Shown piece after piece: positions 7,747 to 56,593 of a DNA stretch of 64,000 nucleotides (position 1 is its first letter; every line of letters begins with the position of its first letter). The stretch comes from Bacteroidota bacterium (GTDB lineage Bacteria; Bacteroidota; Bacteroidia; NS11-12g; UBA955), in NCBI GenBank assembly GCA_030682255.1, contig JAUXOK010000026.1, positions 96,567-160,566 on the forward strand, in the 5' to 3' direction. The notes beneath the pieces are model-generated. The model ran no database searches and had not been told where the DNA came from. It was given only the letters and a program-made list of their open reading frames with translations. Made by a program: the position numbers and the translations under genes.

Positions 7747-7809
7747 CAACTAATGAGTAAAACATAAAAGTAATTTTACCATTTCAAGTTGTATTTTTGT
7801 TTTTTAAAA

Positions 7810-9786: not shown

Positions 9787-9787
9787 A

Positions 9788-10360: not shown

Positions 10361-10361
10361 G

Positions 10362-10490: not shown

Positions 10491-10621
10491 TCCTGCCTTA
10501 TGTATTTATAATGCAAAAAAATTAAAACCCTTAATCTAGATTAATGTTTTTTCTTAACTTAGTTCATGTATGTGATGGTGGGGCGCATGTTACCTTCGCA
10601 TCAATCAATAATCTAAAAAAA

Positions 10622-11146
10622 ATGGCAAATTATCAAATCGACAACATGCACTCTGAAGTGAGTTTTAAAGTAAAACACTTAATGATTTCTACCGTTACAG
10701 GACAGTTTTCTGAGTTTAATTCAACAATGGTTTCAGAAGCAGCAGATTTTTCTGATGCTAAAATCAATTTTGAAGCAAGTATCAATAGTATTTCTACAAA
10801 CAACTCTCAAAGAGATGAGCATTTAAAAAGTGCAGATTTTTTTGATGCAGCCAATCATCCTAAAATGACCTTTGTTTCAAATGCTATGACAAGCAAAGGG
10901 GATTCAGAATATGCTTTGTCTGGCATTTTAACTATCAGAGGCCATGCAAAACCAGTGATATTAAACGTCCAATACGAGGGCAAAATGGTGGACCCTTATG
11001 GCAACGAAAAACATGGCTTTGAAATATCAGGCAAAATAAGCAGAAAAGAATTTGGCTTAGAATGGTCGGCAGTTACAGAAGCTGGAGGCATAGTAGTTTC
11101 TGACGAAGTAAAACTAGCCATCAACGCACAGTTTCAAAAATTGTAG
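10622..11146 (+). CDS. YceI-family periplasmic polyisoprenoid-binding protein
   Basis: MANYQIDNMHSEVSFKVKHLMISTVTGQFSEF is the characteristic YceI N-terminus. Track start at 10544 is probably an upstream alternative start. Confidence 0.8.
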   Translation: MANYQIDNMHSEVSFKVKHLMISTVTGQFSEFNSTMVSEAADFSDAKINFEASINSISTNNSQRDEHLKSADFFDAANHPKMTFVSNAMTSKGDSEYALSGILTIRGHAKPVILNVQYEGKMVDPYGNEKHGFEISGKISRKEFGLEWSAVTEAGGIVVSDEVKLAINAQFQKL

Positions 11147-30900: not shown

Positions 30901-31406
30901 TTAATGCTGTAAACACTAAAAAACTTCCTACTTCAGGCTCTGATGCTCAAGGAAAATCTAATTTGCGTATTATCAAAAGAGCGGGCAATAGCATTAATAA
31001 CACTGGTTTGCCAGGCTCTTATATTGGAGCTGTGAGCACCATCGATCCTCCTGATAGCAACATAGTTTTTAATTCGCAACTAAGCCGTTGGGAAGTGAGT
31101 TTTGACGTATTAGGATTTAGTGGCTTTTTTGTTAATACAGGAAACAAAGTTACTTCTTTAACAGAGCTCCCCAAAAATTTAAACAATGTAGAACTATTTC
31201 CTAATCCTACCAATGGAATCCTAAATATACTTAGCCATTATAACCAAGATTTTAAACTCAAATTAATGGATATTTCAGGCAAACTTTTAATTGAAAAAAC
31301 CTTTCAAGGAAATGGAACTCATCTATTAGATTTAAGTAATTTTTTGCCAGGCATCTACTTAGTTAAACTAAGTACCGGTGAAACCTTTAAGGTGATTAAA
31401 CAGTAA
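27984..31406 (+). CDS. 1140-aa repetitive cell-surface protein with a T9SS type-A sorting domain (Por_Secre_tail)
   Basis: Signal peptide MKIILLYSTLIICLFTNAQS; about 18-20 tandem copies of a roughly 61-aa unit (SNSLVGS.anDQVGsgGItaLSNGNYVV.Sp.WDNGaa.naGAVTWGNGTSGISGvVSa); C-terminus LFPNPTNGILNI...GIYLVKLSTGETFKVIKQ. Confidence 0.7.
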   Translation: MKIILLYSTLIICLFTNAQSTHVNGPIGSGEFGRSITILSNGNYVVTDPLFDDGTKADVGAAYLYNGSTHALISTLKGSTANDQVGSHGIIVLSNGNYLIHSFNWNNGTAFYAGAVTWGSATTGVSGVVGPSNSLVGSKANDRIGNSGILVLSNGNYLVLSTVWDNGAAIDAGAVTWGSDVLGVTGVVSESNSLVGSTSSDQVGSGGATLLSNGNYIVNSPTWDNGSISNAGAVTWGSGNSGISGAVSASNSLVGSTADNIVGNGGITILTNSNYVVRSSRWDNGTANDVGAVTWGNGTSGIIGAVSASNSLVGSTVNDQVGSGFIIALSNGNYVVNSPFWDNGAISNVGAVTWGNGTTGISGLVSASNSLVGSLANDQVGIVISTALSNGNYVVRSYNWDNGAASNAGAVTWGNGTSGITGAVSASNSLVGSTANDQVGINGITALSNGNYVVISRQWDNGAATDAGAVTWGNGTSGISGVISSSNSLVGSSASDQVGINGVAVLSNSNYVVISPNWNNGAATNAGAVTWGNGTSGISGVVSTSNSLVGSTTNNLVGSNGITALSNGNYLVMSPSWDYGTSTDLGAVTWSNGTTGISGVVSASNSLVGSSALDQVGVNGISLLSNGNYVVRSNNWDNGAVTNAGAVTWGNSNSGISGAVSASNSLVGSKVGDQVGSSGITVLSNGNYVVNSSNWDNGTAIQAGAVTWGNGNTGISGVVSVSNSLVGGTANNFVGNGSVIALANGNYVVRSFNWDNGAVSDVGAITWGSGTKGISGVVSESNSLIGSTANNLVGSASFNIFPNGYFVVRNPNWDNGTATDAGAFSLGNESKALTGVVNSCNSVLGNAANGGSKMISAFNTVHSYLLVGRPGDNILTIFNPIGQPLAVHLDSTSANIEGNTAVPLVNNACRIIASIQANGVNPVMDLVPAKVWIETNQTDSFVKRHFEITPIVNNNNATAKVILYFTQSEFDDFNAVNTKKLPTSGSDAQGKSNLRIIKRAGNSINNTGLPGSYIGAVSTIDPPDSNIVFNSQLSRWEVSFDVLGFSGFFVNTGNKVTSLTELPKNLNNVELFPNPTNGILNILSHYNQDFKLKLMDISGKLLIEKTFQGNGTHLLDLSNFLPGIYLVKLSTGETFKVIKQ
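28230..30480. repeat. intragenic tandem DNA repeat, period about 183 bp (encodes the roughly 61-aa protein repeats)
   Basis: Recurring tcttt(g)gtgggtagcac...ggcaattatgt...tgggacaatgg...gccgtcacttggggcaatggcacttcaggtatcagcggtg blocks across this interval. Confidence 0.7.
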
Positions 31407-33498: not shown

Positions 33499-34056
33499 AT
33501 GAAAAAATGTTTGGTTTTCGTTTTGTTTTATGCATTGATGTTAGAAGTGGCATTGGCTCAACATCCAACATTTTATCTTTTTTCGGGTGTTGGCAAATCG
33601 CTTAAAGGCATAAATTATAATCTTTTTAATGTTGGCACTAAAATCAAGTTGTCTAAGCAGAAAAAACTACACTTTAATATAGAATACTATCACACTGAAA
33701 AAAGACTGAATTATACTTACTATTTCCCCAATGATTATGCCTATTATAATAAAAGGTCTGCTATTTTGATGGGAATGCATAATGAATTTACTTTGAGCAA
33801 TGATTTGGCATTAGGTATTGGTGCAGGCATTTCTTATTCAACTTTGAAAAGCAAACTCAACAGCAGCACTCCCTATTTAAATGAAATCTTATTAAATCAA
33901 CACCAACACAATCAGGTTAAATTGTATTTTACCCTGTTTTTAGATTACATGGTAAGCAAGAGAAGTAGTGTCTATTTAAAATACAACAAACAGAGGGCAT
34001 ACAACGGTATTCTTCCTGGCACAATTTTAAGTTTAGGGTTTTGCAAAGGATTTTAA
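33499..34056 (+). CDS. small outer-membrane beta-barrel (porin-family-like) protein
   Basis: Signal peptide MKKCLVFVLFYALMLEVALAQ; alternating hydrophobic pattern; C-terminal aromatic residue. Confidence 0.4.
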   Translation: MKKCLVFVLFYALMLEVALAQHPTFYLFSGVGKSLKGINYNLFNVGTKIKLSKQKKLHFNIEYYHTEKRLNYTYYFPNDYAYYNKRSAILMGMHNEFTLSNDLALGIGAGISYSTLKSKLNSSTPYLNEILLNQHQHNQVKLYFTLFLDYMVSKRSSVYLKYNKQRAYNGILPGTILSLGFCKGF

Positions 34057-34064
34057 TAAATAAT

Positions 34065-34634
34065 ATGAATATAAGAATTTTATACAATACTATGGTTTTG
34101 TTTTTATTAATTGCTTGCGAAAAAAAGGTCGATAATTTTTTGCCTGATGGCAATATTAACGATGGCATTCATGATTTGAAAGTTTATGAAGAACTGAAAG
34201 GAGATCCAAGCAAAATGAATGTTTATACCAGAGATGGTTATCCACCTTACAGATTGTTAGATACCTTGAAAAAATATGACATTCAATATTTTACAGATTC
34301 AGTAACCTGCAATCGATTTATAAAAATAGAAGATACAAGTTTTACTATGACAGGTTTTGATTTTGAAAATTATGTTTTAGTACCAATGTTCATTAGCAGT
34401 GCATATTCAGTGACTAGTTATAATATTTATCCATTATACCAAGTAAAATGTATTTTAAACACAGTTTCAAAAACAGCGACAATTATTGTGAGGTCTAAAT
34501 ATGTTATTAATAAAGATAGAAATAGTAGCACTTCTGGGGTATACTTAAACTATATAAAGTGGTTAAGTGTGCCCAAATTACCAAATGGGTATCAATTGAT
34601 AGTGCCTAAGTATGTAGATTCTTATGATTATTAG
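34065..34634 (+). CDS. hypothetical lipoprotein
   Basis: MNIRILYNTMVLFLLIAC contains a lipobox-like LIAC motif. Track ORF starts at TTG 34041, overlapping the upstream gene. Confidence 0.4.
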   Translation: MNIRILYNTMVLFLLIACEKKVDNFLPDGNINDGIHDLKVYEELKGDPSKMNVYTRDGYPPYRLLDTLKKYDIQYFTDSVTCNRFIKIEDTSFTMTGFDFENYVLVPMFISSAYSVTSYNIYPLYQVKCILNTVSKTATIIVRSKYVINKDRNSSTSGVYLNYIKWLSVPKLPNGYQLIVPKYVDSYDY

Positions 34635-38434: not shown

Positions 38435-40501
38435 ATGAGACTATACCTTTTATTAATAATTCTTATATCTTCATTTGCTGAAAATACAATTGCTCAAAAA
38501 TTTGAATGGGCGAAGCAACAAGGAGGTCAAAGATATGATAGGGGCCATTCTGTAGCAATAGACAACTATGGAAATGTTTACACAACAGGTGTTTTTTCTT
38601 TTTATGCTGATTTTAATCCTGGAAAAGATACAAACTACCTCTTTTCAAATGGGGAGGCAGATATATTTATCTCTAAGTTAGATGCCATGGGCAATTTTGT
38701 TTGGGTTAAGCAAATAGGAGGAACAGGGTGGGAAGAAGGCAATTCAATTGTAGTAGATATCTTGGGCAGTGTTTATATTACTGGTAGTTTTTCAGGAACC
38801 GTTGATTTTGATCCAAGTGAAGATACTACTTTTCTAACATCACATGGAATGACCGATATTTTTGTATTAAAATTAGATGCATCTGGCAATTATCTTTGGG
38901 CAAAAAGGTTTGGTGGTTTAGAAAATGACATTGGTACTTCTATTACTTTAGATGCCACTGGAAATATTTATACTACTGGAATATTTAGAGGGTCTGTAGA
39001 CTTTGACCCTGGATTAAGTGTTGTCGAATATAATTCAATAGGCGATTATGATATTTTCATATCAAAATTAGATTCCAAAGGCAATTTCATTTGGGCTAAA
39101 CAATTAGGTGGATTAAATGGAGATGCAAGTTATTCTATAGCTATTGATGCACAAGGATATGTTTATACTACTGGGAGTTTTAAAGGAACAGTTGACTTTG
39201 ATCTTGGAATAGACTCATCTTATTTAAGTTCAACAGGTCATAGAGGGGATATGTATATTTCTAAATTAGATTCTAATGGTAATTTTGTTTGGGCAAAACA
39301 AATTATGGGAACAGATTTGGTAATTGGTCGCTCAATCACTACTGATGATTCAGGGAATGTATACACCACTGGATACTTTGAAAGTAGAATAGACTTTGAT
39401 CTCGCAAATGGGAACATTAATTTCACTTCAGATGGATACTCTGATATTTTTATTTCTAAATTAGATTCTAACGGTATTTTTGTTTGGGCTAAACAAATTG
39501 GAGGAAGTGGTGTTGATGAATGTCATTCAATTGCAATTAACAAATCAGGAGATATTTATACTACAGGTAGTTTTTCCGAATCTGTTGATTTTGACCCCGG
39601 TTCAGATTCCTTCAATTTGAAAGCAAAATACGAGGATGTTTTTATTTCCAAATTAGACAATGCTGGTAATTTCATATGGGCAAAACAATTATTAGGTACA
39701 AATTTTGGCAATGGCACGTCTTTAGTTTTAGATGTATCAAACAATATTTATACAACTGGCTATTTTTTTGGCACTGTTGACTTTGACCCAGGTAAAGGCA
39801 CTACTAATTTTATTCAAGCTGTTCCAAATAGCTTCTCTGATATTTTTGTTCTTAAGCTATCATCATGTACTACTGCTGTAGTTACAGACACAAGAACCGC
39901 CTGCAACTCTTACACATGGATTGATGGAAAAATCTATACATCAAGCAACAACAATGCTCAATTTATAATTTCTGAAGGTGCTGCTAATGGTTGTGATAGC
40001 ATAGTAACACTTAATCTAACAATCAATAATATTTCTGATATTACAACATCTACTTCTGGTTCAAATATTACTGCAAACAATAATATAGCTACTTACCAAT
40101 GGCTAGATTGCAACAATAACTTTGCTAAAATTTCAGGCGCTTCCAATCAAATATTTTCACCAACTTTAAACGGAAGTTATGCAGTTGAACTTACTGAAAA
40201 TAGCTGTGTTGATACAAGTTCTTGTGTTGTTTTTTCAAATCTTAATATAGTTGAGAATGATTTAGGATTTGAGCTTGTATTTTATCCTAATCCAACGAAT
40301 GGAAAATTAATAATTGAATTAGGCAAAGAACTAAACAATGTGCAATTAACAGTTCGTAATTTGTTAGGTCAAGAAATTTATTATAAAAACTATGCTTCTG
40401 CAAATCAAATTGAATTGAATTTAGAAAGCCCTTCAGGCATTTACTTAATAGAAATACTTAGTAATGGGAAAAAAGCGGTTTTAAAAATTCTTAAAGAATA
40501 A
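38435..40501 (+). CDS. SBBP-repeat (beta-propeller) protein with a T9SS type-A sorting domain
   Basis: Repeated GN.YTTGxFxGTVDFDPG.... FISKLD..GNFVWAKQ units; C-terminus FYPNPTNGKLIIEL...GIYLIEILSNGKKAVLKILKE. Confidence 0.7.
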   Translation: MRLYLLLIILISSFAENTIAQKFEWAKQQGGQRYDRGHSVAIDNYGNVYTTGVFSFYADFNPGKDTNYLFSNGEADIFISKLDAMGNFVWVKQIGGTGWEEGNSIVVDILGSVYITGSFSGTVDFDPSEDTTFLTSHGMTDIFVLKLDASGNYLWAKRFGGLENDIGTSITLDATGNIYTTGIFRGSVDFDPGLSVVEYNSIGDYDIFISKLDSKGNFIWAKQLGGLNGDASYSIAIDAQGYVYTTGSFKGTVDFDLGIDSSYLSSTGHRGDMYISKLDSNGNFVWAKQIMGTDLVIGRSITTDDSGNVYTTGYFESRIDFDLANGNINFTSDGYSDIFISKLDSNGIFVWAKQIGGSGVDECHSIAINKSGDIYTTGSFSESVDFDPGSDSFNLKAKYEDVFISKLDNAGNFIWAKQLLGTNFGNGTSLVLDVSNNIYTTGYFFGTVDFDPGKGTTNFIQAVPNSFSDIFVLKLSSCTTAVVTDTRTACNSYTWIDGKIYTSSNNNAQFIISEGAANGCDSIVTLNLTINNISDITTSTSGSNITANNNIATYQWLDCNNNFAKISGASNQIFSPTLNGSYAVELTENSCVDTSSCVVFSNLNIVENDLGFELVFYPNPTNGKLIIELGKELNNVQLTVRNLLGQEIYYKNYASANQIELNLESPSGIYLIEILSNGKKAVLKILKE

Positions 40502-42800: not shown

Positions 42801-43268
42801 ATGAATTTAGAAAAATATTCCCAATTAATAGAATCTTCGTTAGCCTCTCTTGGTTTAAATCCAACTGATTCAAGATGCGCAGAAGAAGGTCAGTGGCTAT
42901 TATTTAATGGCGAAACAGAAATATACATTGACTTATGGGAAGAAAAAAACGACAACCCTTGGTTATATTTTGAAAATGATGAACCCATTTTTATCTTTCA
43001 AGTAATTGCTCCAATTTGTCATCTACCAGCTGAAAATATTACTAGCTTTTATGAAAGTTTACTACACAACAACTTAAATCTTATCAATGCGTCTTATACA
43101 ATTAATAAAGAACAAAATATTTTAGCTGTTAAAATACGTAAAACCTCAAAATTTATTACTCAAGAAGAAATCATTGATTTGATAGAAGCTATAGGCTACT
43201 ATTCAGAAATCACCTATGATTCTCTAGCCGAAATATACACTTTAGAAAAAATAGCGAAAGAAAACTAA
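42801..43268 (+). CDS. hypothetical protein, possibly YbjN-like
   Basis: 155-aa acidic protein; weak resemblance to YbjN-type folds only. Confidence 0.35.
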   Translation: MNLEKYSQLIESSLASLGLNPTDSRCAEEGQWLLFNGETEIYIDLWEEKNDNPWLYFENDEPIFIFQVIAPICHLPAENITSFYESLLHNNLNLINASYTINKEQNILAVKIRKTSKFITQEEIIDLIEAIGYYSEITYDSLAEIYTLEKIAKEN

Positions 43269-43347
43269 CTTTTTTTTATCCTTCAGACAACCTTTTAAAT
43301 CAAAATGACTTCTAATGGATATCAACAAAATTGTAAAACCTGTGTAA

Positions 43348-43896
43348 ATGGCTGATTTCAATATTGAAACTCTTAATGAACTACTAGTTCAATGTATTGA
43401 TAAACAACCTAAAGCGCAAAAAAAGTTATTTGACATATTATCTCCCAGAATGTTTGCAATCTGCCTTAGATATTCACAAAATGAAGACGAAGCAAAAGAT
43501 TTACTTCAAGAAGGTTTCATTAAAATATTCAACAACCTCGAACAATTCAGCAATAAAGGTTCGCTTGAAGGATGGATTAAACGTATTTTCATAAACACGT
43601 GTATCGAATTTCATCGAAAAAATCAAAAACATCGTTTTTTAGACAATATTGAAAATGTAACCGAAATTTCAATTGATAGTCAAACTCTATCGTTATTGAA
43701 AAAAGCCGATTTGATGAAACTTGTCCAAAAACTCCCCAAAGGCTATAGAACAGTTTTCAACTTATTTGTAGTTGACGGATATGGACACAGCGAAATTGCT
43801 GAAATGTTAAATGTTTCAGAAAACACAAGTAAAACACAACTATTTAGAGCAAGACAAATACTGCAAGAGATAATATTAAAACAAGATTTAAAGTGA
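43348..43896 (+). CDS. RNA polymerase ECF-type sigma-70 factor
   Basis: Region-2 motif ...EDEAKDLLQEGFIKIF...; region-4 HTH ...GYGHSEIAEMLNVSENTSKTQLFRARQIL. Confidence 0.9.
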   Translation: MADFNIETLNELLVQCIDKQPKAQKKLFDILSPRMFAICLRYSQNEDEAKDLLQEGFIKIFNNLEQFSNKGSLEGWIKRIFINTCIEFHRKNQKHRFLDNIENVTEISIDSQTLSLLKKADLMKLVQKLPKGYRTVFNLFVVDGYGHSEIAEMLNVSENTSKTQLFRARQILQEIILKQDLK

Positions 43897-44807
43897 TAGA
43901 AAAAAATATAAATAACGAATTTGACAGCCTTTTTAAAGAAGGACTAGAAAACAATGCTATAACACCACCAAACGGTGTTTGGGAAAATCTATCTTCTCAA
44001 ATGGGTAGTCAGGCTTCAAATGTAACTATTGCAAAAACTATCGCAACAAAAACAACTAGTCTTTGGATTAAAACAAGTTTATTTATTGCTGTAGCTTCCA
44101 TTTCAGGAGTTATTGCCTATCAAGCTTTCAACTCAAAAACCGAACAACAAACACTAAATTCTGAAATAGCAAACAACGCAAATACTACTAATAATTCTGG
44201 CCAAACAATTATTCAATCGGAAGAAATAGAATCAGAATTGAATGAAAGCGAAAAATCAGATAACAAAAATATAGGGGTCACACCACCTATTTTAAATGAA
44301 AAAAGCAAGAGCAAACCTCAAAATGCAACTCATAACACGAAAGAAACAATTGTAATAGAGAACAAAACTACAGCAAAAGAATCTAAAGATATTAGTGATA
44401 ATATTGATAACACTTCAAAAAACACAAATTCCAAGTTGCCAGAAACTCAACCGAATGAGACTATTCAAAATGATGAAATTTACAAGGATGAAAGTGAACC
44501 AATTACATTGAATCCGATCAAAAAAGATACTATTTTTATAATTATACCAAATGTTGTTACACCCAATAACGATGGCATCAATGATGTGTATCGCATAGAA
44601 ATGAAAGGTGAAATCAAATTTTACATGGCAATTTTTAATGATAAAATGGAACGCATTTTTGAGACAAGCAACAAAAACAATGCATGGGATTGCAAACTCT
44701 CAAATTTAGAGGATGCGCCAGCCGGAAATTACATTGTAATTGTAAAATATCAGTTGAAAAACTCTGATGAAAAAACCGAAACAACAAAGCTTAAATTAAT
44801 TCGATAA
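43893..44807 (+). CDS. putative anti-sigma factor (single-pass membrane protein) with a C-terminal T9SS type-B sorting domain
   Basis: GTG start overlapping the sigma gene stop codon (GTGA); one TM helix (TSLFIAVASISGVIAYQAF) after a roughly 55-aa N-terminal segment; S/N/T/E-rich linker; C-terminus IIPNVVTPNNDGINDVYRI...GNYIVIVKY. Confidence 0.55.
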   Translation: MIEKNINNEFDSLFKEGLENNAITPPNGVWENLSSQMGSQASNVTIAKTIATKTTSLWIKTSLFIAVASISGVIAYQAFNSKTEQQTLNSEIANNANTTNNSGQTIIQSEEIESELNESEKSDNKNIGVTPPILNEKSKSKPQNATHNTKETIVIENKTTAKESKDISDNIDNTSKNTNSKLPETQPNETIQNDEIYKDESEPITLNPIKKDTIFIIIPNVVTPNNDGINDVYRIEMKGEIKFYMAIFNDKMERIFETSNKNNAWDCKLSNLEDAPAGNYIVIVKYQLKNSDEKTETTKLKLIR

Positions 44808-44842
44808 AAAACAATTTGGAAAATTAAAAAAATGAACATAAT

Positions 44843-47800
44843 ATGCAAACTCAAAAGAATATGAATAAAATAAATCAAATACTCAGATTTAGTAAGGCAG
44901 TTGGTCTCTTACTTTTCTTAGCTTTTACGAGCTCAGAATTAAGTGCACAGTGCAGTATTACAACGGGGGCATCACCATGTGTTGGCGAACCAGTACTATT
45001 TAATTGTAACGCAGTTGGTGCTACAAATTTCAATTGGAATTTCAATAGCGAAGGTTCAAATACCTCCGCATGTAATCCTACATTTGTATTTAACACACCT
45101 GGACTAAAAACAATTACATTGTCGTTAAGGCTTGCCAATGGCAATACTTGTAATGCAACAACAACTATTGATGTTAAACCAAAACCAATTGTTAGAATCA
45201 GTAGAATTGTTCAACAAACGCAGTGTTTTGCTGGCAATAGCTTTTGTTTCAGAGATAGTAGTATTTCAGGTGAAACAGGTGGAAATATTTGCAAAACTAC
45301 CATCGTATTTGATGATGGAGTGAGATATACTTTTACCGGCAATGGACCACGCACATTCTGTCATTCATTTGGCGACCCTGCGGGTGGAACATATGGTATG
45401 ACAGTTGAAATTGAAGATTGTAATGGCTGTTTAGTTAAAACAAGACTCGATGCCGTTGCTATTGTTCAGGCATCTTTGGGTTTATCATTTTCATCTCCAA
45501 GACCTCAACGTTGCGATAGTGTTCAATTATGTGTTACCAATAATTCAACTATTCCACTCAGCCAAGTTTCTTCATTTAGATGGAATTGGGGAAATGGCCA
45601 AGTAACCACTGGTAATTCAACAACACCACAATTTTGGGGAAATCCAGGACAAACGCCTAACAATCCTATTTGCCATTGGTTTAAAACTCAAGGACCAAAT
45701 AATGGTAGTTTTAACTCTAGATTAATTGTAACTTCAGTATTTGGTTGTACAGATTCATTTACATTCAACGCTTCTGCAACTAATTTAATTATCAAACCTG
45801 TTATTGTAGCCGACAGAGATTCTGTTTGTATAACTGATCCTCAAATTAACTTTAGATTAAAAAATGGACCTGTTCCATTAGCAGCCAATCCAGTTTGGAA
45901 CTTTGGTAATCCTCCTAGCGGACCACTAAATATCAGTAGACAGTGGACAGGCTCACACGCAGCATGGGGATTAGGACCATACAAAATAAACTTTTCATTC
46001 ACACACCAAATACCAGGATGTAGCAGAACAGTTTATGACACTATCTTAGTTATAGGGCCGCAATCTGTTATTGAAACGGGACCAAGCAATTGGTTAGTTG
46101 ACACTTTAAGATACCAATGTGTCATTAAAGACACCGTTAAATTTAAAAACTTTTCTCAATTTTATCACAATGATAAAAACATGATGGATGATGATTCTCT
46201 TATTATCATCATTAAAGATAGCATCATGGTGAACAAAAACACTGGGGTTATTGTAACAGGACAAACCTATAATCCTTCTATCCACGAATGGGTTTTTCCA
46301 GGATTTAATGCGCCTATGTCACACTCGTTCAACAAATTACCGCCTCCTGCACCTGTTCCTAGCAATGGACAAACATCGCTAGAGCACCATAATCAACAAA
46401 GAGGAAACTCTTGTACAATAAGATTGTGGGATTTTGATGATGACTATTGTGAAAAATGTACTACCGATACCAAAAACGGAGTCAACATAGGAAAAAACTG
46501 TAAATACAGTAAAGACTCATTACCACAGCACTGGTATACGCCATGGGATTCTTTATACATGACTAACTTTGGATTAAGATCAGAAAATGTATTTAGATAT
46601 GACCAAGATTCTGGGTTGTGTTACCAAAGAAGACTTTGGTCTAATGATTCTGTAGCAATTATCAGAGATACTTTCTTGTTTTATGGTGACAATCCTATTG
46701 GCAATTCAGCAAAAGATTCTGCCATTTTTGCAAATATTAAAAACAAAGTGATGGTTCCTTGGGGTGTTCAAGGAAAAGCAAAAATAGACATAACCATAGC
46801 AACAAGAGTTCGTGTTCCGGGTGGAGACACGTTATTTGTTGACCCTAATAATGGTCTTGCTCCTAACAGATGGATAGGACCTAGGTATGTCACCATTCAA
46901 CCAGGTAATTCATTGGTATTAAAATCTACTACAGATAGAGTGTTTTATCACTTTTGGTTACAATACATTGTTGATACCATTCCTTTACATTTAGTAGAAC
47001 CATGGCACAAAGTATTTACAAAAATACCAATGCCAAGTTTCCAAATAGGCGATAGTGTAAATGCGGATGCTCATCGTCAGAAATTTTATTCTGGAGATGT
47101 TGTTAGATGTTTCAATGTTAGACTTAAACACAAAGATACATGCCATGATTTAGAATGTGAAAATGAAGCTGTAGCATCATTAGCGCTGCAACCACCTAGT
47201 GCCAAAAAACTAAGAAAAGAAGGTGTATTATGTTTAGGCGGAGCCCAACAAACTTATGGTATCACATTTATTTTAGAAGATACTAAACCTAGTTGTTCTA
47301 GAACTTGGGCTGAAATCAATTATGATACTGCATTAAACAAAAATGGCTGGTTGAATTTAATAGGACCAAACTTAGGTGGCGGTGCTGTACCAACAGGAGC
47401 ACTTCCTCCAGTAAACCCTCCATATTTAGGCTATATTCCTGCAGGTCCTGCTCCTGGCAGATTCTCTAAACAATTTACGGTAGATGACATTAAAGATACT
47501 GTTACAGGCTATATCAATGTTGGACTAATTGTTGGAACAGGTATATGGACTAATTATCTTAACCAAGGAATCAGAACAAGTACATATGGCTATCCAATGG
47601 ATTGTCACGATACGGTTTATTATGAAAAATTTGCACGATTCCCTATTCTAGACAATCAATTCAGAATCATTAAACCAAAACAAGGTGATGCCTTTACTAA
47701 AATTTGCAGAAAAGATACCATCTGTTTAACTACTATGGCTTGGAACAGATCTTACATTCCAGATGTAGCAGAAACTCAATGGAGTTTAACCGGAGCTAAT

Positions 47801-50326
47801 GTTGGAAAATACTTTAATCAATATTATATTCTAAGTGTAAATGAAACTTATGAAAGATTCAAAACCATTCATCCAGATACGCCATATTTAGAAGACAGAT
47901 TGAGAGTCGTAAAAACATCATTCTTTGATGGTACTACAACAAAACTAGATAGTCAAAATATCAGAGTAGCTAAAGTTACTAAATGGCACACAGAAGCTGA
48001 TATTACGCCTGTATTTGACATCATCAAAGCCATTTTAGAATTCAACAGAATTGATATTTACGAATTAACCCCTGCTCAAATAAATGAAATTATTTGGAAT
48101 GGTGTTGGACAATTCGGAAGACCATATACAGGTTCAAGAGGTTGCTTAGATACTACAGGATTTGGTAGATTCATCAGATTCTACAAAGTAGCCGATGAAA
48201 AAGAAAGCTTACATTATAGAGACTCAAGTTTATTACCTTTAGAAACTGTTAAAGGTTGGGATGGTAACACCTATAATGCTTATTGTTTCATCCCTCAGTT
48301 TTCAGGTTACTATGTTGCCAATTATGGATTAAGAAGTACACCACCTGAAAATTGTAATAAGACCACAGGAACCGCTAAAAAAGTAATTGTTGGCTTCTGG
48401 AATCAAATGAATTACAACGATACAATCATTTGTCATGGAAGTCCTATTACATCTACGCCACAATTTAGATATTTTGAAGTATTCCCTGAAATTACCTTCC
48501 AATTATTAGACCCTACAGATTATTGGAGACAAAGAATAAGCGAAGCAGGAAATACCAATAGAGAAACAGTTACAAGATGGGACTTAAGCAAAGAAGATGA
48601 TGGAACTCATCCTCAATCTATATTTGGTGGTTTCCCATATGGCGCTTCTGGATTAGGAAATCCTACCATTACGCTTGGTGGCATTGCTGGTGGTATTTAT
48701 TACTTCCAAGACAGTGGAAGAACTTATTTAATTAGAACTGCAGTTGGTGATAGCGCAGGCTGTAGAGACACAATATCTCAAGACATTTATGTTTCTGCGG
48801 TAAGAGCTAAGTTTGACATCAGTCAAAAACGACCTCAGTGTAATACGATTATCGACTTTTTCGATGAATCATTTATTCAAGATCCATGTCCAGACAAATT
48901 AGGAGTACCTTGTGATAGAATTATCAAATGGACCATAGATTGGGGTGATAAAGCCAGAAATTCAGTTAACCGTTTCTTTGACAATCTTCCGCCAAATATA
49001 GCCCATGATTATACAAGAAATGGTAAATTCTGGATTAAATTAACTGTTGAATCAGAATTAGGTTGTATTGATGTAGATTCATTGGAAATATATATTCCTG
49101 GTCCTACACCATTCTTTGATACTTTAATTCCAAGAAGATATTGCGTGGGCGAAAAAGTAGACTTCTCTAATTTAAGCACATATGCTAGAGCAGATAGCAG
49201 TGTTTGGATATGGAGTTTTGGTGATAATCAATTTGGCAACCAAACTGATACCATCACACCACAAAATGATACAATTTCTAATAGATATAAAGCTGCTGGC
49301 ACCTATTCAATTTTCTTATACCATTACTTTAAATTAAAAGTTGGTAATACTTGGAAAACCTGTTCTGTTGTATACCCTGATACAAGTAATGGACAACAAG
49401 CTCATTTCACAATTGAAGTATTTGCATTGGATAGCACGAAAGTTTCTGTCAGACCTGCTGAAGTTTGTGTTGGAGACAGTGTATTTTTAGATGGCTATGT
49501 TGTTCCTCACGATCGTTATTCATTGTACAAATGGAATTTAGGCAAAACATTGACAGATACTTTAGTTACTCCTGATACAAGCCTTGTTAGATTCTATAAT
49601 ATACCTGGCCGATATGTAATCAAATTCCAAGGGGATGTCAATAGTGCATCCACATTGAATCAGAAAATATGTCCTGGAATAGATAGTGTTGTACTCTTAG
49701 TTGGGGATGTTAAAGCTAACTTTGAAATTGATTCAACAAGAAAGCCACTATTCTGTTTCAATAACACATCTACCAACAACACAGTGAATAGATGGAGCTT
49801 CTACAACGATCAATCAAACATTGTAGACCCAACTGCTGACCGACCTAAACCTAGAAACTTTATAAACAATGGCAACTCTGCAGATTATGATAAACCTCAA
49901 ATCTGTGAAGATTACAGAGATTCACTTGGTGAATACTGGGTATGTTTAGAAGTAGAAAATGCGATTGGATGTAAAGATACTGTTTGTAAAAAAGTATTCA
50001 ATGATTTCCAAGCAATCATTCGTCCACCAAACGTATTTACTCCTAATTCAGATGGATTTGCTGGAGTGGATAGAGAAGGATTACCAGGTAATAACGTATT
50101 TAACATCGAAATAAAAGGTCATGAAAAATATGATTTAATTATCTACGATCGTTGGGGAGTTAAAGTGTTTGAATCTCAAGATTCTCAAAACGACTGGAAT
50201 GGTAAAGTTAAAAACACTGGTGTAGAATGCCCAGATGGCACATACTACTATATTCTGAAATATAAATTCAAAGGTTCCGAAAAAGATGAAGATATACTAA
50301 ATGGTGTAGTAAGATTGATTCGATAA
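44843..50326 (+). CDS. 1827-aa secreted protein with a T9SS type-B sorting domain (gliding motility-associated CTD)
   Basis: Signal peptide ...LLFLAFTSSELSAQ; Cys-containing, PKD/Ig-like repeated modules; C-terminus PPNVFTPNSDGFAGVDREGLPGNNVFNIEIKG...GTYYYILKY. Confidence 0.7.
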   Translation: MQTQKNMNKINQILRFSKAVGLLLFLAFTSSELSAQCSITTGASPCVGEPVLFNCNAVGATNFNWNFNSEGSNTSACNPTFVFNTPGLKTITLSLRLANGNTCNATTTIDVKPKPIVRISRIVQQTQCFAGNSFCFRDSSISGETGGNICKTTIVFDDGVRYTFTGNGPRTFCHSFGDPAGGTYGMTVEIEDCNGCLVKTRLDAVAIVQASLGLSFSSPRPQRCDSVQLCVTNNSTIPLSQVSSFRWNWGNGQVTTGNSTTPQFWGNPGQTPNNPICHWFKTQGPNNGSFNSRLIVTSVFGCTDSFTFNASATNLIIKPVIVADRDSVCITDPQINFRLKNGPVPLAANPVWNFGNPPSGPLNISRQWTGSHAAWGLGPYKINFSFTHQIPGCSRTVYDTILVIGPQSVIETGPSNWLVDTLRYQCVIKDTVKFKNFSQFYHNDKNMMDDDSLIIIIKDSIMVNKNTGVIVTGQTYNPSIHEWVFPGFNAPMSHSFNKLPPPAPVPSNGQTSLEHHNQQRGNSCTIRLWDFDDDYCEKCTTDTKNGVNIGKNCKYSKDSLPQHWYTPWDSLYMTNFGLRSENVFRYDQDSGLCYQRRLWSNDSVAIIRDTFLFYGDNPIGNSAKDSAIFANIKNKVMVPWGVQGKAKIDITIATRVRVPGGDTLFVDPNNGLAPNRWIGPRYVTIQPGNSLVLKSTTDRVFYHFWLQYIVDTIPLHLVEPWHKVFTKIPMPSFQIGDSVNADAHRQKFYSGDVVRCFNVRLKHKDTCHDLECENEAVASLALQPPSAKKLRKEGVLCLGGAQQTYGITFILEDTKPSCSRTWAEINYDTALNKNGWLNLIGPNLGGGAVPTGALPPVNPPYLGYIPAGPAPGRFSKQFTVDDIKDTVTGYINVGLIVGTGIWTNYLNQGIRTSTYGYPMDCHDTVYYEKFARFPILDNQFRIIKPKQGDAFTKICRKDTICLTTMAWNRSYIPDVAETQWSLTGANVGKYFNQYYILSVNETYERFKTIHPDTPYLEDRLRVVKTSFFDGTTTKLDSQNIRVAKVTKWHTEADITPVFDIIKAILEFNRIDIYELTPAQINEIIWNGVGQFGRPYTGSRGCLDTTGFGRFIRFYKVADEKESLHYRDSSLLPLETVKGWDGNTYNAYCFIPQFSGYYVANYGLRSTPPENCNKTTGTAKKVIVGFWNQMNYNDTIICHGSPITSTPQFRYFEVFPEITFQLLDPTDYWRQRISEAGNTNRETVTRWDLSKEDDGTHPQSIFGGFPYGASGLGNPTITLGGIAGGIYYFQDSGRTYLIRTAVGDSAGCRDTISQDIYVSAVRAKFDISQKRPQCNTIIDFFDESFIQDPCPDKLGVPCDRIIKWTIDWGDKARNSVNRFFDNLPPNIAHDYTRNGKFWIKLTVESELGCIDVDSLEIYIPGPTPFFDTLIPRRYCVGEKVDFSNLSTYARADSSVWIWSFGDNQFGNQTDTITPQNDTISNRYKAAGTYSIFLYHYFKLKVGNTWKTCSVVYPDTSNGQQAHFTIEVFALDSTKVSVRPAEVCVGDSVFLDGYVVPHDRYSLYKWNLGKTLTDTLVTPDTSLVRFYNIPGRYVIKFQGDVNSASTLNQKICPGIDSVVLLVGDVKANFEIDSTRKPLFCFNNTSTNNTVNRWSFYNDQSNIVDPTADRPKPRNFINNGNSADYDKPQICEDYRDSLGEYWVCLEVENAIGCKDTVCKKVFNDFQAIIRPPNVFTPNSDGFAGVDREGLPGNNVFNIEIKGHEKYDLIIYDRWGVKVFESQDSQNDWNGKVKNTGVECPDGTYYYILKYKFKGSEKDEDILNGVVRLIR

Positions 50327-50353
50327 TTTAATCATTAAATAAATATATCAAAT

Positions 50354-50383
50354 AGCCCTGACAAAATCAGGGCTATTTTTTTT
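50354..50383 (+). terminator. rho-independent terminator after the 1827-aa gene
   Basis: AGCCCTGacaaaatCAGGGCT followed by ATTTTTTTTT. Confidence 0.8.
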
Positions 50384-54034: not shown

Positions 54035-56593
54035 TTAGAGTTTACTATAATTTTTTGTATAAAAGGCTATATAATCATCTACTACTTTATCTAAAAGTAA
54101 TATCGAAAAATTTTCTTTACTAATGGCAAAATGAATTGGCTTATCATTGAGTTTTAATTCCTCAATAAACTTACCTTCATTTTCTATTTCTTTTAAATAT
54201 GAAATTAATACTTTCAAATCCTTAAAATTGTTTACAATTAAAACTTGGTATTTATCTCCAACCAATGAATTAGTAACCCTTAATTCATCTTTGGAATAAA
54301 AATTTTTATTCCTATTCAAAAATGCAATTTTCACCTTTGTAAAATCTACTGATTTAGGGATAAGCATGGCATAAAAGTGATTAGAGTTTTCATTGAAAGT
54401 ATATTTACTAACTGTAGTTTCTGTATCTACTATCTCACCATTTTTAATTTTAATCTTTTTAATGATATCTTCACTTTGTTTGGCTATAGGAGTTTCTGGG
54501 TAATTAGTAACAATGGCAGAAAGTTTTGATTCAAAGCCTTTCATTTCACCTAATTCGCCAGTACACAAAGCTTCCAAATAATCAAAATTTACTTGAAGAG
54601 GATTACCTGGAAATTTCAAATCTGTTTCTTGTTTTAATTTGATAGCTTGCGCAAAGCTTTTATTTTTGTACAATTGATAAACTTCTTTAAACTTATTATC
54701 AACTTCATCTGATGGCTTTTCTTGATTTGCAATTGTAGAATCATTCTTCTCTGAACGCATCAGTACACTTAAAAAATTGCTATTTGAATCCGATTTTTTA
54801 ATTAAATCAACATAATAATCGAATTTAGGAATATTACCTTGCTCTTTGTTAATTTTAGCTAAAAGATACCAAGAGTTTAGTTCATATTTACTTTTAGGAT
54901 ATAATTGATTCAACTCCTCAAGCATTTTCTTGGCTTTATCAATTTCTTTCAAATTCTGATAATAAACATTAGCTCCCAAAAAATAAGATTCTGAAATATC
55001 TTCTTTCATTTTATCTTTATCAGCTTTAGAGAAAGGTATTGCTTCGTAATACTTTTTTCGTTCATCATCAACGCCTTTCAATAATTTCTCCTTTTCTTCA
55101 CCTCCATAGTCATTTTCTGCTTGAGCATCATTCACTTCTTTCCAAACTGCACTTTTATTACTACTTATAGCCCAATAATCCATTAATTTCCTATTGCCCC
55201 AAATTCTCTGAAAATCTTGCAACCCTTTTGTTTTGGCTGTCATATTATAAAAAGGGAAATTAGTAGTTGTTACTACATTATTGTTTTGAATTTGAAAGTT
55301 TTGTTGGGTTTTTTGTATTTCTATTTGCCGTTGTTCCTCTAATTCTTTTTCTTTGGCTTGTTTAATTAATTTATCAATCGTTTTTTCTCTTAACTTCTCA
55401 TTATTGGACAATCTCAACAAACTGTCCTTTTCTTTAATATTAACCAAATGTTTAATGAGTTCATTTAAAACTAAATTTTTATCTTGAATAAACTTATAAT
55501 TTGGAAAATCTGGGCTCACTGTTCTAGCTGCACTGTCATAATAAACTTGAGCGTTTTCATAATCCTGTCTTTTAAAATACAAATCTGCTAAAGTTAGATA
55601 AACGGAGCTTTTAATCGAACTTATTGATTCCTTAGAACGCAGGGATTTAGAATAAGCTGCTATAGCTTCATTCTCGTTTTTATCAGATAATTCTAAATTA
55701 CCCAATTCGTAATAGATTTGATCAAAATAATCAATATTTTTATCATCACGAAGCATGTCTCTCAATAAATTTTTAGCTATTTTAATTTCATTTCTGTTTT
55801 TATAATTGATAGCTTTTACAATGTTTAATTTTGAATTGAAAGCAAAATCATAAACAGGGTTTAACTTTATAACTTTTCTAAATTTTTCAATTCCTTGTTG
55901 GTTGTTTTTAGTTAGTATATACAACTGAGCTAAAACGAAATTTGTTCTTACTTTTTGGTTTTTATTTTTAAGATGAGGAATTGCTCCTTCCAACAATTTA
56001 ATAGCAACTAAATATTTTTCCTGCAAAATATTGACACTAGCACCAGCAATATCCAATTGTGTTTGCAATTTTTTAGGGAAAGACTTTTTGGTTTTCAACT
56101 TTGTATACAATGCTTCGGCATCCTCAATTTTTCCTTGTTTGATGTATGTAGTAACGAGATTTATCTCCGCTTGATATGCAGCATAAGATTCTTTAAAATT
56201 AGCAGCAACATATTCGTAAACTTCTACAGCTGAATAAAAATCACCTTTAAAAAACCTAGCATCCCCCATCAAAAGATAACTGTCGTCTACCCATTTCGAA
56301 AAACTGTGTTTATCTATGATATGTGAACATTTTTTGATAGCCTCATCCATTTTAGACGCATTTCCTTTTAAGACATTTTCGTCAGGAAAGGGATAAAGTG
56401 ATAAAATATTTTTAAAATTATCTTTGTATCCAATCACCGCTTCCTCTCTTGCATCAGAAACTAATAAATTAGCGTTGTAGTAGTAATTATAATGAGACAC
56501 AGAGTTGTGCCAAGCTTTAGAAAACCAACTCTGAGCATTGGAATTAAAACACATTGAAAACAAAAACATCAATATAATTGATAGTCGAAACAT
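54035..56593 (-). CDS. large tetratricopeptide-repeat protein (852 aa); possibly SprE/PorW-like, not verified
   Basis: N-terminal signal sequence; TPR-like helical repeats throughout. Assignment to the SprE/PorW T9SS component is only by size, composition and genomic setting. Confidence 0.55.
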   Translation of the reverse strand: MFRLSIILMFLFSMCFNSNAQSWFSKAWHNSVSHYNYYYNANLLVSDAREEAVIGYKDNFKNILSLYPFPDENVLKGNASKMDEAIKKCSHIIDKHSFSKWVDDSYLLMGDARFFKGDFYSAVEVYEYVAANFKESYAAYQAEINLVTTYIKQGKIEDAEALYTKLKTKKSFPKKLQTQLDIAGASVNILQEKYLVAIKLLEGAIPHLKNKNQKVRTNFVLAQLYILTKNNQQGIEKFRKVIKLNPVYDFAFNSKLNIVKAINYKNRNEIKIAKNLLRDMLRDDKNIDYFDQIYYELGNLELSDKNENEAIAAYSKSLRSKESISSIKSSVYLTLADLYFKRQDYENAQVYYDSAARTVSPDFPNYKFIQDKNLVLNELIKHLVNIKEKDSLLRLSNNEKLREKTIDKLIKQAKEKELEEQRQIEIQKTQQNFQIQNNNVVTTTNFPFYNMTAKTKGLQDFQRIWGNRKLMDYWAISSNKSAVWKEVNDAQAENDYGGEEKEKLLKGVDDERKKYYEAIPFSKADKDKMKEDISESYFLGANVYYQNLKEIDKAKKMLEELNQLYPKSKYELNSWYLLAKINKEQGNIPKFDYYVDLIKKSDSNSNFLSVLMRSEKNDSTIANQEKPSDEVDNKFKEVYQLYKNKSFAQAIKLKQETDLKFPGNPLQVNFDYLEALCTGELGEMKGFESKLSAIVTNYPETPIAKQSEDIIKKIKIKNGEIVDTETTVSKYTFNENSNHFYAMLIPKSVDFTKVKIAFLNRNKNFYSKDELRVTNSLVGDKYQVLIVNNFKDLKVLISYLKEIENEGKFIEELKLNDKPIHFAISKENFSILLLDKVVDDYIAFYTKNYSKL

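Follow-up and report, generated by a model that had tools for sequence, protein, structure and literature searches.

[quoted passage not shown] The locus lies within a 64,000-nucleotide stretch of DNA of a Bacteroidota bacterium, referred to below as the window. All elements given in a preliminary description of this locus (the three ORFs, the GTGA overlap, the transmembrane (TM) segment and the CHU_C/type-B CTD) were confirmed at their positions (Table 1). The best explanation of the locus, to which we assign a probability of roughly 0.6, is that the partner is a Dma-like anti-sigma factor which docks on an outer-membrane T9SS component through a type-B CTD devoid of the RWG motif, and which controls the operon.

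Table 1. Position of the genes, partner segments and control elements of the locus in the window.
Feature	Position	Strand	Remarks
Candidate ECF-type autoregulatory promoter	43288..43314	+	CAACCTTTTAAATCAAAATGACTTCTA; -35-like CAACCT, -10-like TCTA
ECF sigma gene, 182 aa	43348..43896	+	sigma-2 and sigma-4 regions only
Partner gene, 304 aa	43893..44807	+	GTG start
Partner residues 1-40, N-module, proposed sigma-binding, predicted cytoplasmic	43893..44012	+	conservation, HMM, AlphaFold
Partner residues 56-79, single TM helix	44058..44129	+	hydropathy, AlphaFold
Partner residues 80-211, low-complexity disordered linker, proposed periplasm-spanning tether	44130..44525	+	AlphaFold, composition
Partner residues 212-304 and stop, CHU_C/type-B-like CTD, RWG-less	44526..44807	+	Pfam, AlphaFold, Foldseek
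Giant cargo gene, 1827 aa	44843..50326	+	N-terminus resembling a signal peptide; PKD domains; canonical type-B CTD
Intrinsic terminator	50350..50378	+	strong; 12-13 bp stem, then T-run; ends the sigma-partner-giant unit

Organization of the locus

The TGA stop codon of the sigma gene (43894-43896) overlaps the GTG start codon of the partner gene (43893-43895), and the gap between the partner and giant genes amounts to 35 bp in the window and to 7, 7 and 3 bp in the loci L001-L003. No terminator-like site was found in the intergenic positions between the three genes, three weak hairpins (5-7 bp stems) being located within the giant coding sequence, and the housekeeping-type motif TAnnTTTG (one mismatch allowed) is absent from the 150 nt 5' of the partner and giant starts. 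The gene 3' of the giant cargo gene is mnmE. The candidate promoter lies ∼35 nt 5' of the sigma ATG with the spacing CAACCT-N17-TCTA. Of 84 loci, 31 have the corresponding two-block motif, CAAC[CT]N-N14-19-NTCT[AT], 5' of the sigma gene, compared with a mean of 1.5 and a maximum of 6 in shuffled sequences and none on the opposite strand. Throughout the window the motif is matched three times (0.94 expected by chance), and the site listed in Table 1 is the sole one of these ahead of a gene. The sigma factor, the membrane-anchored anti-sigma factor and the giant T9SS surface protein are thus likely to form a three-gene operon, whose make-up suggests that gene control and the secretion machinery are connected in a way not described before.

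The organism harbours a T9SS, as PorW/SprE is encoded at 54035-56593 and further CTD cargo genes are located within the window. A PorP/SprF-like gene neither adjoins the operon nor was detected among the window ORFs tested; since orphan type-B substrates are known (PMC12618676), the missing adjacent shuttle gene is weak evidence.

The 1827-aa product contains PKD_4 and PKD domains and a CHU_C domain (60 bits, residues 1728-1814) with RWG present, and its N-terminus resembles a signal peptide ending in LSA|QC. Homologues are encoded directly 3' of the partner in the loci L027 (39% identity, full length), L019 (23%, ∼1700 aa) and L048. The suggestion that the giant cargo is linked to the sigma factor therefore holds as far as the operon structure and the recurrence of such homologues after the pair in several distant lineages are concerned, but not in general: the neighbourhood of most CHU_C-type pairs is devoid of a cargo gene, and hence cargo control would be a feature of a subtype rather than of the whole family.

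The sigma factor and the family of its partners

The window sigma matches the Pfam families Sigma70_r2 (55 bits) and Sigma70_r4_2 (60 bits) as well as TIGR02937 (88.7 bits, cutoff 42.9) and, having the sigma-2 and sigma-4 regions only, belongs to the ECF (group IV) sigma-70 factors. It shares 43-48% amino acid identity with sigmas paired with distant CHU_C partners and 39-52% with 80 reference-genome sigmas, including those preceding partners with an OMP_b-brl_2 domain, some of them at loci with a NigD-like neighbour. In 79 of these 80 loci a gene is found directly 3' of the sigma gene (median gap -4 nt, 49 overlapping), and 69 of the 79 gene products contain the N-module of the partner. A survey of whether sigma factors and CTD-bearing partners recur as pairs had been proposed in the preliminary description; they do, as 16 genes at the 79 loci end in CHU_C, while at least 20 of the other 61 downstream genes end in an OMP_b-brl_2 outer-membrane β-barrel.

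The architecture, which had been regarded as an isolated oddity, turns out to represent a recurrent family and, probably, a variant of the known Dma/ECF21 kind. The profile built from the partner N-terminal alignment (N-module and TM segment) matched 828 protein clusters, and 110 of 155 proteins sampled from these matches carry CHU_C at the C-terminus. The N-module/CHU_C fusion itself was seen in roughly 100 protein clusters, whose lineages include Crocinitomicaceae, Flavobacteriales and Bacteroidales, among others. In every neighbourhood examined, namely the syntenic group of the window and three unrelated contexts (P0008, P0007 and P0017), an ECF sigma of one clade is encoded directly 5' of the partner.

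N-terminal module and membrane anchor

AlphaFold predicts two helices in the N-module, at residues 6-20 and 29-38 (pLDDT 76-79). The protein sequence of residues 1-36 is conserved in all homologues (W30 in 99%, F14 in 93% and L18 in 92%). An in-frame ATG at residue 37, 5' of the hydrophobic segment, was considered as an alternative start, which would make the TM segment a signal peptide; it was rejected because M37, unlike residues 1-36, lacks conservation, and the long N-terminus is accordingly real. The hydropathy maximum of the partner (1.78) falls at residues 57-75 of a single hydrophobic segment, approximately residues 56-79, with an AlphaFold helix at residues 63-79. Across the family the segment starts at a median position of residue 53, with a Lys conserved at its N-terminal edge in 92% of proteins. 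The positive-inside rule yielded no clear orientation signal over the family. A hydrophobic segment starting this late argues for a membrane anchor, as had been proposed, and not for a cleavable signal peptide; indeed, no N-terminal Sec signal peptide of the cleavable kind was recognized in the partner, its sole hydrophobic segment following the conserved module.

The expected similarity to anti-sigma domains, on the other hand, was not found. The N-terminal region has no match in Pfam, NCBIfam or PDB sequence comparisons, and no curated anti-sigma domain (zf-HC2/RskA-type class I, RsgI_N) was detected in the cytoplasmic region of the partner; the RsgI_N matches in three sister proteins fall outside the first 90 residues. 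The reading of the partner as an anti-sigma factor is instead supported by the conserved N-module, its constant adjacency to an ECF sigma of one clade, and its homology to the N-termini of proteins of the Dma architecture, described below.

Relationship to Dma proteins

In Dma proteins, which are encoded beside ECF21 sigmas (PMC13088901), an N-terminal domain is joined through a TM helix and a disordered tether to a barrel (PMC10927553, PMC13088901). A Dma1(1:40)-GST fusion pulls down Das1, and it is through residues 1-40 that Dma1 binds its ECF21 sigma (PMC10927553, PMC13088901). A 39-position HMM of the cytoplasmic part only, built solely from CHU_C-type proteins, matched in register the first ∼37 residues of barrel-type (Dma-like) partners, scoring 21-33 bits in 8 of the 11 tested and less in L036, L051 and L029. 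One of the barrel-type proteins matched, L047, has a NigD-like gene at its locus, as in the NigD2-Das1-Dma1 neighbourhood BT_4719-4721 (PMC10927553). The link to Dma is thus made via barrel-type partners of other genomes, not via Dma1 (BT_4721) or Reo themselves.

The window system shares with Dma/ECF21 a partner encoded directly after, and translationally coupled to, a Bacteroidota-specific ECF sigma, a ∼40-aa N-module with homology to its counterpart in the barrel-type partners of this sigma clade, a single TM helix and, in the periplasm, a long disordered linker. It differs in that the partner ends in a CHU_C β-sandwich of ∼90 aa, and Dma in an eight-stranded barrel (OMP_b-brl_2). No OMP_b-brl_2 match was obtained for the partner, and with a β-sandwich in place of the barrel it cannot span the outer membrane alone. 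The linked genes differ as well, with a giant PKD/type-B cargo here and NigD-like lipoproteins there, and the Dma phenotype of outer-membrane vesicle production is not implied for the window system. As judged by sequence, the partner is probably a Dma-like anti-sigma factor in which the barrel is replaced by a type-B CTD and the N-module presumably binds the sigma factor. No description of such a variant was found in the literature searched.

Linker and C-terminal domain

The linker is predicted without secondary structure (pLDDT ∼50), and its abundant residues are N, T, E, K, I and S (21, 17, 17, 15, 15 and 14 of the 136 residues counted). Compared with the closest relative, it is 21% identical, the N-module 77% and the CTD 73%, while its length in the family ranges from 110 to 213 aa (median 143), with none shorter. 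Hence, it behaves as a tether: the ends are conserved, the middle evolves fast and the length is kept.

The partner CTD is predicted as a β-sandwich (pLDDT 96-98) and matches CHU_C (PF13585) at residues 216-294 with 51.4 bits (cutoff 27, E = 1.2e-13). With TIGR04131 of NCBIfam, both the partner (31.8) and the giant cargo (33.4) score under the cutoff of 35. The Foldseek matches of the CTD were Ig-like folds of a generic kind, among them PorZ, PorU and one chain from the SprA translocon complex. The partner CTDs retain PNvFTPNGDGxND, WDG, PxGxY and LxLxR, yet RWG was found in none of 97 and none of 23 (0/120 in total), as opposed to 7 of 7 neighbouring cargo CTDs and 110 of 120 other CHU_C proteins. 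The domain is consequently not the standard type-B CTD it had been taken for: it systematically lacks RWG, and its set of conserved type-B motifs is thereby incomplete. On their motif content, partner CTDs form a distinct type-B subclass without RWG, and this absence offers an easy means of telling regulatory and cargo type-B CTDs apart by sequence.

Proposed mechanism and alternative explanations

We infer the following sequence of events, in which sigma binding, CTD contact, signal and proteolytic release are all proposed steps. The two-helix cytoplasmic module of ∼40 residues would hold the sigma factor at the inner membrane and the long disordered linker would cross the periplasm. The CTD-like domain would not be exported but would dock on a T9SS component of the outer membrane, for which a PorP/SprF-like shuttle barrel is the most plausible candidate; type-B CTDs bind to barrels of this kind, remaining uncleaved (PMC9143113). 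Such docking would recreate in trans the bridge between inner and outer membranes that Dma1 makes with its fused barrel. If the contact were lost or disturbed, possibly through the state of the T9SS or the outer membrane or through competing cargo CTDs, the tether would become open to proteolysis, and subsequent intramembrane cleavage would free the sigma factor. The latter could then transcribe from the CAACCT-N17-TCTA promoter of its own gene, increasing expression of the operon together with the 1827-aa cargo. The broader generalization, that a widespread unrecognized class of Bacteroidota anti-sigma factors plugs into the T9SS via a non-secreted RWG-less type-B CTD, its tether, running from the cytoplasm to the outer membrane, informing an ECF21-type sigma of the state of the T9SS or the outer membrane and one subtype controlling giant adhesins, is tentative and should be held with less than even confidence.

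The strongest competitor, which we nevertheless consider unlikely, retains the anti-sigma factor but treats its CTD as unrelated to the T9SS, the CHU_C fold serving in the periplasm as an ordinary sensing or interaction domain that recognizes a ligand, peptidoglycan or another envelope protein, and the loss of RWG reflecting release from a secretion role. It would account for the absence of RWG from every subclass member. In its favour are also the need for each of five conserved type-B motifs in secretion of the SprB CTD (PMC12618676), the generic fold, the lack of a PorP/SprF-like gene nearby and the lack of a T9SS cargo neighbour in most pairs. However, PNxFTPNGDGxND, WDG, PxGxY and LxLxR are strongly kept in proteins that are only ∼20% identical overall, which argues for a retained type-B-specific interaction beyond the fold alone. 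Moreover, the sister architecture bears an outer-membrane-directed domain, the linker is at least 110 aa long throughout, which fits a far end that has to reach the outer membrane, and several lineages have a giant type-B cargo gene in the operon.

The main idea of the preliminary description, sigma release coupled to T9SS engagement or CTD processing, would mean that the CTD is a working secretion signal and that the T9SS pulls or processes the C-terminus of the anchored protein as a site-1 event leading to intramembrane proteolysis and sigma release. This appears improbable; release by transport or CTD processing is no better supported than docking or a T9SS-independent sensor. The CHU_C score above the Pfam threshold and a linker long enough to reach the outer membrane speak for it, Dma1 is processed to C-terminal fragments found in outer-membrane vesicles (PMC10927553), and signal peptidase is described as performing the site-1 cleavage of some anti-sigma factors (RsiP; PMC8844934). 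Known T9SS substrates, however, all carry cleavable signal peptides (PMC12618676), type-B CTDs are not cleaved, and RWG, missing in the subclass, is kept in every true cargo CTD sampled in the vicinity, an indication against normal transport. Finally, the view that the partner is merely a small cargo of the T9SS, its start being miscalled or its signal anchor unusually long and uncleaved, and that its sigma adjacency has no regulatory meaning, is largely refuted and very improbable: the ATG at residue 37 and the public annotation would suit it, but the conservation of residues 1-36 and not of M37, the late hydrophobic segment throughout the family, the ability of the N-module alone to predict sigma adjacency and architecture, and the same module heading barrel-type anti-sigma-like proteins all contradict it.

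Comparison with other systems

In the 2024 description of the Dma family, which covered β-barrel ends only and gut Bacteroides only, this way of wiring the outer membrane to transcription was called unprecedented. Here, the same putative sigma-binding module and tether are found fused also to a specialized T9SS type-B domain. Should the CTD of the Dma-like partner dock on the T9SS, the protein would provide the first direct link within a single polypeptide from the secretion/gliding machinery to an ECF sigma, and a route to how giant type-B adhesins are controlled. The current annotation of these proteins, which is only [quoted passage not shown], hides this proposed regulatory role.

As in FecA-FecR-FecI cell-surface signalling, an outer-membrane event would be relayed to an ECF sigma by a single-pass inner-membrane anti-sigma factor. 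In Fec-type systems, however, two distinct proteins act as outer-membrane receptor and anti-sigma factor, and their domains (TonB-dependent transducer and FecR) are unrelated; the partner matched neither of these in Pfam or NCBIfam. The PorA-PorXY-SigP pathway of Porphyromonas gingivalis (PMC7712824, PMC12152298) likewise feeds cell-surface/T9SS information from a T9SS-CTD protein to an ECF sigma; PorA, though, is a separate exported surface protein with a type-A CTD acting through a two-component system, whereas the CTD in the window is fused to the proposed anti-sigma factor itself, no kinase being involved.

With type-B cargo proteins and their PorP/SprF-like shuttles (SprB-SprF, PG1035-PorP; PMC9143113, PMC12618676) the partner has in common a CTD above the CHU_C threshold and most type-B positions. 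It differs from them in having an inner-membrane helix after a cytoplasmic module instead of a cleavable signal peptide, no adjacent shuttle gene, and no RWG, which essentially all ordinary type-B CTDs possess. The adjacent 1827-aa protein, by comparison, is a standard member of the type-B CTD cargo class.

Gene organisation and architecture of the anti-sigma-like partner

The preliminary description of the locus placed an ECF sigma gene, the gene for an anti-sigma-like protein (hereafter the partner) and the gene for a giant type-B T9SS cargo in a row; all three ORF positions proved exact, and the GTGA common to the sigma stop codon and the partner start was confirmed in the sequence. The type-B CTD assigned to the partner was likewise borne out by a CHU_C score of 51.4 bits against the Pfam cutoff of 27, while with the NCBIfam model TIGR04131 (cutoff 35) both the partner (31.8) and the giant protein (33.4) fall slightly below the threshold.

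Features of the sigma locus and T9SS-related genes in the window
Feature	Position	Strand	Description
Candidate ECF-type promoter motif	43288-43314	+	Ahead of sigma gene; no other well-placed copy in the window
ECF sigma gene	43348-43896	+	182 aa; Sigma70_r2 and Sigma70_r4_2; passes ECF superfamily model TIGR02937
Partner gene	43893-44807	+	304 aa, GTG start; CHU_C at residues 216-294
Giant gene	44843-50326	+	1827 aa; signal peptide-like N-terminus, PKD domains, CHU_C at residues 1728-1814
Strong terminator	50350-50378	+	Directly after giant gene; sole strong one
PorW/SprE, T9SS periplasmic lipoprotein	54035-56593	-	852-aa TPR protein; NF052312 511 bits (cutoff 250)
Second type-B cargo	14217-16748	-	843 aa; PKD and CHU_C, with RWG
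Type-A T9SS cargo	27984-31406	+	1140 aa; 14 DUF5650 repeats, type-A T9SS tail
Type-A T9SS cargo	38435-40501	+	688 aa; SBBP beta-propeller repeats, type-A T9SS tail

The partner contains a single hydrophobic segment (approximately residues 56-79) and a linker of ~130 residues rich in N, T, E, K, I and S; the low-complexity linker and the single TM helix described earlier are seen both in the sequence and in an AlphaFold model built with a 97-sequence alignment. According to this model, residues 1-40 (the N-module) form two helices (6-20 and 29-38, pLDDT 76-79), the TM helix spans residues 63-79, residues ~80-210 are unstructured (pLDDT ~50) and residues 212-304 adopt a beta-sandwich (pLDDT 96-98). 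Foldseek comparison with the PDB returned generic Ig-like folds, among them PorZ and PorU, as well as one chain (75 residues) of the SprA extended translocon complex. The partner and its closest relative share 77% identity in the N-module, 73% in the CTD and 21% in the linker, whose length in the family ranges from 110 to 213 aa (median 143), a typical member being 280-430 aa long. A tether would be expected to look like this, with conserved ends and, between them, a linker that evolves fast but keeps its length.

An in-frame ATG at partner residue 37 lies upstream of the hydrophobic segment, and initiation at this codon would turn the TM segment into a signal peptide. Such a start was ruled out because residues 1-36 are kept at the protein level in seven homologues, with W30 invariant and M37 not conserved. 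Among 86 family members, conservation is 93% for F14, 92% for L18 and 99% for W30, and a Lys borders the TM segment in 92%. The hydrophobic segment, which across the family starts at a median of residue 53, is not a cleavable signal peptide but anchors the protein in the membrane behind a conserved cytoplasmic module, in line with the uncleaved segment that had been considered as an alternative. When the positive-inside rule was applied to the CHU_C-type family (partners ending in a type-B CTD), the N-in orientation was favoured by net charge, not by K+R counts. Comparison of the N-module with curated families and solved structures gave no match; RsgI_N matches in three sister proteins, considered as support for an anti-sigma domain, were dropped as lying outside the first 90 residues.

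Recurrence of the family and linkage to the sigma gene

An N-terminal profile of 76 positions, devoid of CHU_C columns, gave 828 clusters at E<=1e-3 among 1.84 billion representative proteins. A CHU_C-like C-terminus is present in 110 of the 155 N-module proteins retrieved, and most of the remainder are either short fragments or long proteins in which several N-modules stand in tandem. Together with the 16 reference-genome sigma loci whose downstream gene ends in CHU_C, this count shows the architecture to be recurrent, a point that the preliminary description had proposed to survey. The only public annotation of the family is [quoted passage not shown], and no natural sigma-partner fusion was found among the retrieved proteins. 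Proteins P0009, P0010, P0012, P0020, P0027 and P0070 (600-700 aa) carry four to six tandem N-modules, a sign that several sigma molecules could be held by certain anti-sigma factors of this type; in P0009 a TM helix comes after the tandem N-modules, then a long linker and finally a barrel-looking C-terminus (...NYRF).

Close relatives share the gene order of the window (sucD, a 155-aa ORF, sigma, partner, giant, mnmE). The distant members P0008, P0007 and P0017 reside in unrelated neighbourhoods, each directly after and overlapping an ECF sigma gene, and the sigmas of these loci are 43-48% identical to that of the window. The linkage was also followed from the sigma side by scanning one genome per GTDB species with a sigma alignment, the best 80 of more than 594 relatives being kept; no match was obtained when the partner protein alone served as the query of a genome scan. 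Directly downstream of the sigma gene, 79 of these best 80 loci contain a gene of at least 100 aa (median gap -4 nt, 49 overlapping). The N-module was detected in 69 of the 79 downstream genes and a CHU_C end in 16; in the other 61 downstream genes OMP_b-brl_2 was found in 20 and OMP_b-brl in 10, the rest having no match. The sigmas of this clade are thus constantly paired with the N-module and TM helix, and it is the extracytoplasmic end that can be exchanged. Besides the partner, no gene common to all loci of the clade was found. The CHU_C-type pairs occupy at least four positions in the sigma NJ tree, and a single origin and multiple origins of the domain swap are both possible.

At L068 (7501-8376) the sigma groups with the clade of the window and L027, and the 292-aa partner, whose TM segment lies at ~53, gave no match with the N-module HMM or with the CTD HMM. 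In the close relative L002 the sigma is split into ORFs of 122 and 60 aa (7457-8004) and the giant (8923-10809) ends after 628 aa, which could reflect operon decay or assembly errors. Within the 64-kb window no second sigma/partner pair was found; the overlapping ORFs 33499-34056 (+) and 34041-34634 (+), encoding 185 and 197 aa without Pfam or NCBIfam match, were checked as a candidate and rejected.

A subclass of type-B CTD without RWG

The partner CTDs were aligned with seven true cargo CTDs, two from the window and five from fetched loci. They keep PNvFTPNGDGxND, WDG, PxGxY and the terminal LxLxR of the latter, whereas the NRWG block is absent; in the model it corresponds to the turn between strands 240-248 and 254-258. 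RWG occurs in 0/97 family members and 0/23 locus partners as against 7/7 cargo CTDs. A CHU_C search with a profile balanced between 6 cargo and 7 partner CTDs yielded 120 further CHU_C proteins, 110 of which contain RWG, and seven of the ten exceptions look by eye like partner-family fragments because their CTDs are close to those of P0005 and P0007. Secretion of the SprB CTD has been reported to depend on every one of five conserved type-B motifs (Paillat et al. 2025, PMC12618676). The partner CTD is a distinct subclass of type-B CTD, and the window partner is devoid of the T9SS-substrate features signal peptide, full motif set and adjacent shuttle gene. A very common class of ~145-aa proteins (P0285-P0390) combines a signal peptide with a short conserved segment (...RKYRVIAYK...) and an RWG-containing canonical CHU_C domain.

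Relationship to the Dma family

The Dma family was described in Bacteroides thetaiotaomicron by Pardue et al. 2024 (PMC10927553), and a follow-up on Dma2 gives the same four-part definition (PMC13088901), whose elements are an N-terminal domain, a TM helix, a disordered tether and a barrel. [quoted passage not shown] The T9SS is mentioned in neither paper (PMC10927553, PMC13088901).

The barrel-type partners of the sigma-clade loci, i.e. those ending in an outer-membrane beta-barrel, fit this published definition. In two Tannerellaceae loci (L047 and L051) the next gene encodes a NigD_N-like lipoprotein, which matches the NigD2-Das1-Dma1 neighbourhood BT_4719-4721. An N-module HMM of 39 positions, derived from the cytoplasmic part of CHU_C-type proteins only, aligned in register with residues 1 to ~37 of barrel-type partners, with 8 of the 11 tested, including L047, scoring 21-33 bits and weaker scores for L036, L051 and L029. 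The tie of the window partner to Dma1 (BT_4721) and B. fragilis Reo is one step removed, running via the barrel-type partners with NigD synteny as a proxy. The window partner lacks the defining Dma barrel; since several T9SS-substrate features are missing as well, we class the pair with neither the Dma family nor the T9SS substrates and treat it as a variant of the Dma kind.

Proposed mode of action

What is established here is the layout of the locus, its domains, its recurrence, the sigma adjacency, the N-module homology to barrel-type partners, the RWG-less CTD and the arrangement of promoter and terminator. It is known from the literature that the first 40 residues of Dma1 bind its sigma and that Dma1 is present in both membranes (PMC10927553), and that type-B CTDs are uncleaved and bind PorP/SprF-like outer-membrane barrels (Gorasia et al. 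2022, PMC9143113). We propose that the N-module sequesters the window sigma and that the CTD, rather than being exported, docks on a PorP/SprF-like shuttle or another outer-membrane part of the T9SS. The docked CTD would reproduce the Dma bridge in trans, and loss of the CTD contact would lead to proteolysis and hence to release of the sigma.

The main rival explanation, which we regard as rather unlikely, retains the anti-sigma role and treats the CTD as a periplasmic sensor independent of the T9SS. Considerably less probable is sigma release triggered by T9SS transport or CTD processing, as put forward in the preliminary description; against it speak the missing RWG, the lack of a signal peptide in the partner and the uncleaved nature of type-B CTDs. 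That the partner is an ordinary cargo is essentially excluded. A literature search for anti-sigma factors with a T9SS, type-B CTD or CHU_C connection retrieved only the work on PorA-PorXY-SigP, in which a type-A CTD protein, PorA, is exported as a separate polypeptide and acts through a kinase.

Operon structure and the link to the giant cargo

The partner and giant genes are separated by 35 bp in the window and by 3-7 bp in relatives. Neither is preceded by a housekeeping-type TAnnTTTG motif, and no second promoter was found ahead of the giant gene. The ECF-type motif CAAC[CT]N-14-19 nt-NTCT[AT] was found ahead of the sigma gene at 31 of 84 loci, compared with 1.5 in shuffles and 0 on the opposite strand. 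The pattern also matches exactly at 567-593 (+), with no convincing gene downstream, and at 48118-48144 (-), antisense inside the giant gene; these two matches are probably due to chance (0.94 expected). In view of the short gap, the terminator after the giant gene, the lack of an internal promoter and the motif ahead of the sigma gene, the simplest explanation is an autoregulated operon in which the giant is co-transcribed.

Immediately after the partner, L027 (39% identity, full length), L019 (23% over ~1700 aa) and L048 each have a homologue of the giant, so that the sigma-partner-giant trio is conserved across distant lineages. The earlier suggestion that the giant is a target of this sigma thus holds as far as operon layout and the distant trios link the two, but the arrangement is not universal, as a giant-type gene is missing directly downstream of the partner in a clade comprising 12 CHU_C-type pairs and in several further pairs. 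The third gene varies across the sigma clade, its products including a thioesterase (16 loci), PKD proteins (7), barrels (5), proteins with type-A T9SS tails (4) and NigD-like proteins (2). At L039 a type-A cargo (8963-10534; PKD, CarboxypepD_reg and Por_Secre_tail) lies directly after a barrel-type (Dma-like) partner, hence a T9SS cargo neighbour is not limited to CHU_C-type pairs; similar-sized ORFs occupy this place in L053, L057 and L072. Just upstream of the candidate sigma promoter, the 155-aa ORF (42801-43268, +), syntenic in L001-L003, has a single weak, sub-threshold match to the secretion-chaperone-like family CesT_Tir_1 (E=0.002).

T9SS genes in the window

The source organism clearly has a T9SS, since the window contains the gene for PorW/SprE and several cargo genes of types A and B. 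PorW/SprE is located only ~3.7 kb downstream of the giant gene. The next gene after the second type-B cargo on that strand, an ORF of 333 aa (12529-13530, -), stands in the usual place of a PorP/SprF-like shuttle gene and has no Pfam or NCBIfam match. The type-A cargo gene with DUF5650 repeats lies in a block with a GC content of 0.45, compared with ~0.33 elsewhere in the window, and the SBBP gene is also found upstream in the syntenic locus L002.
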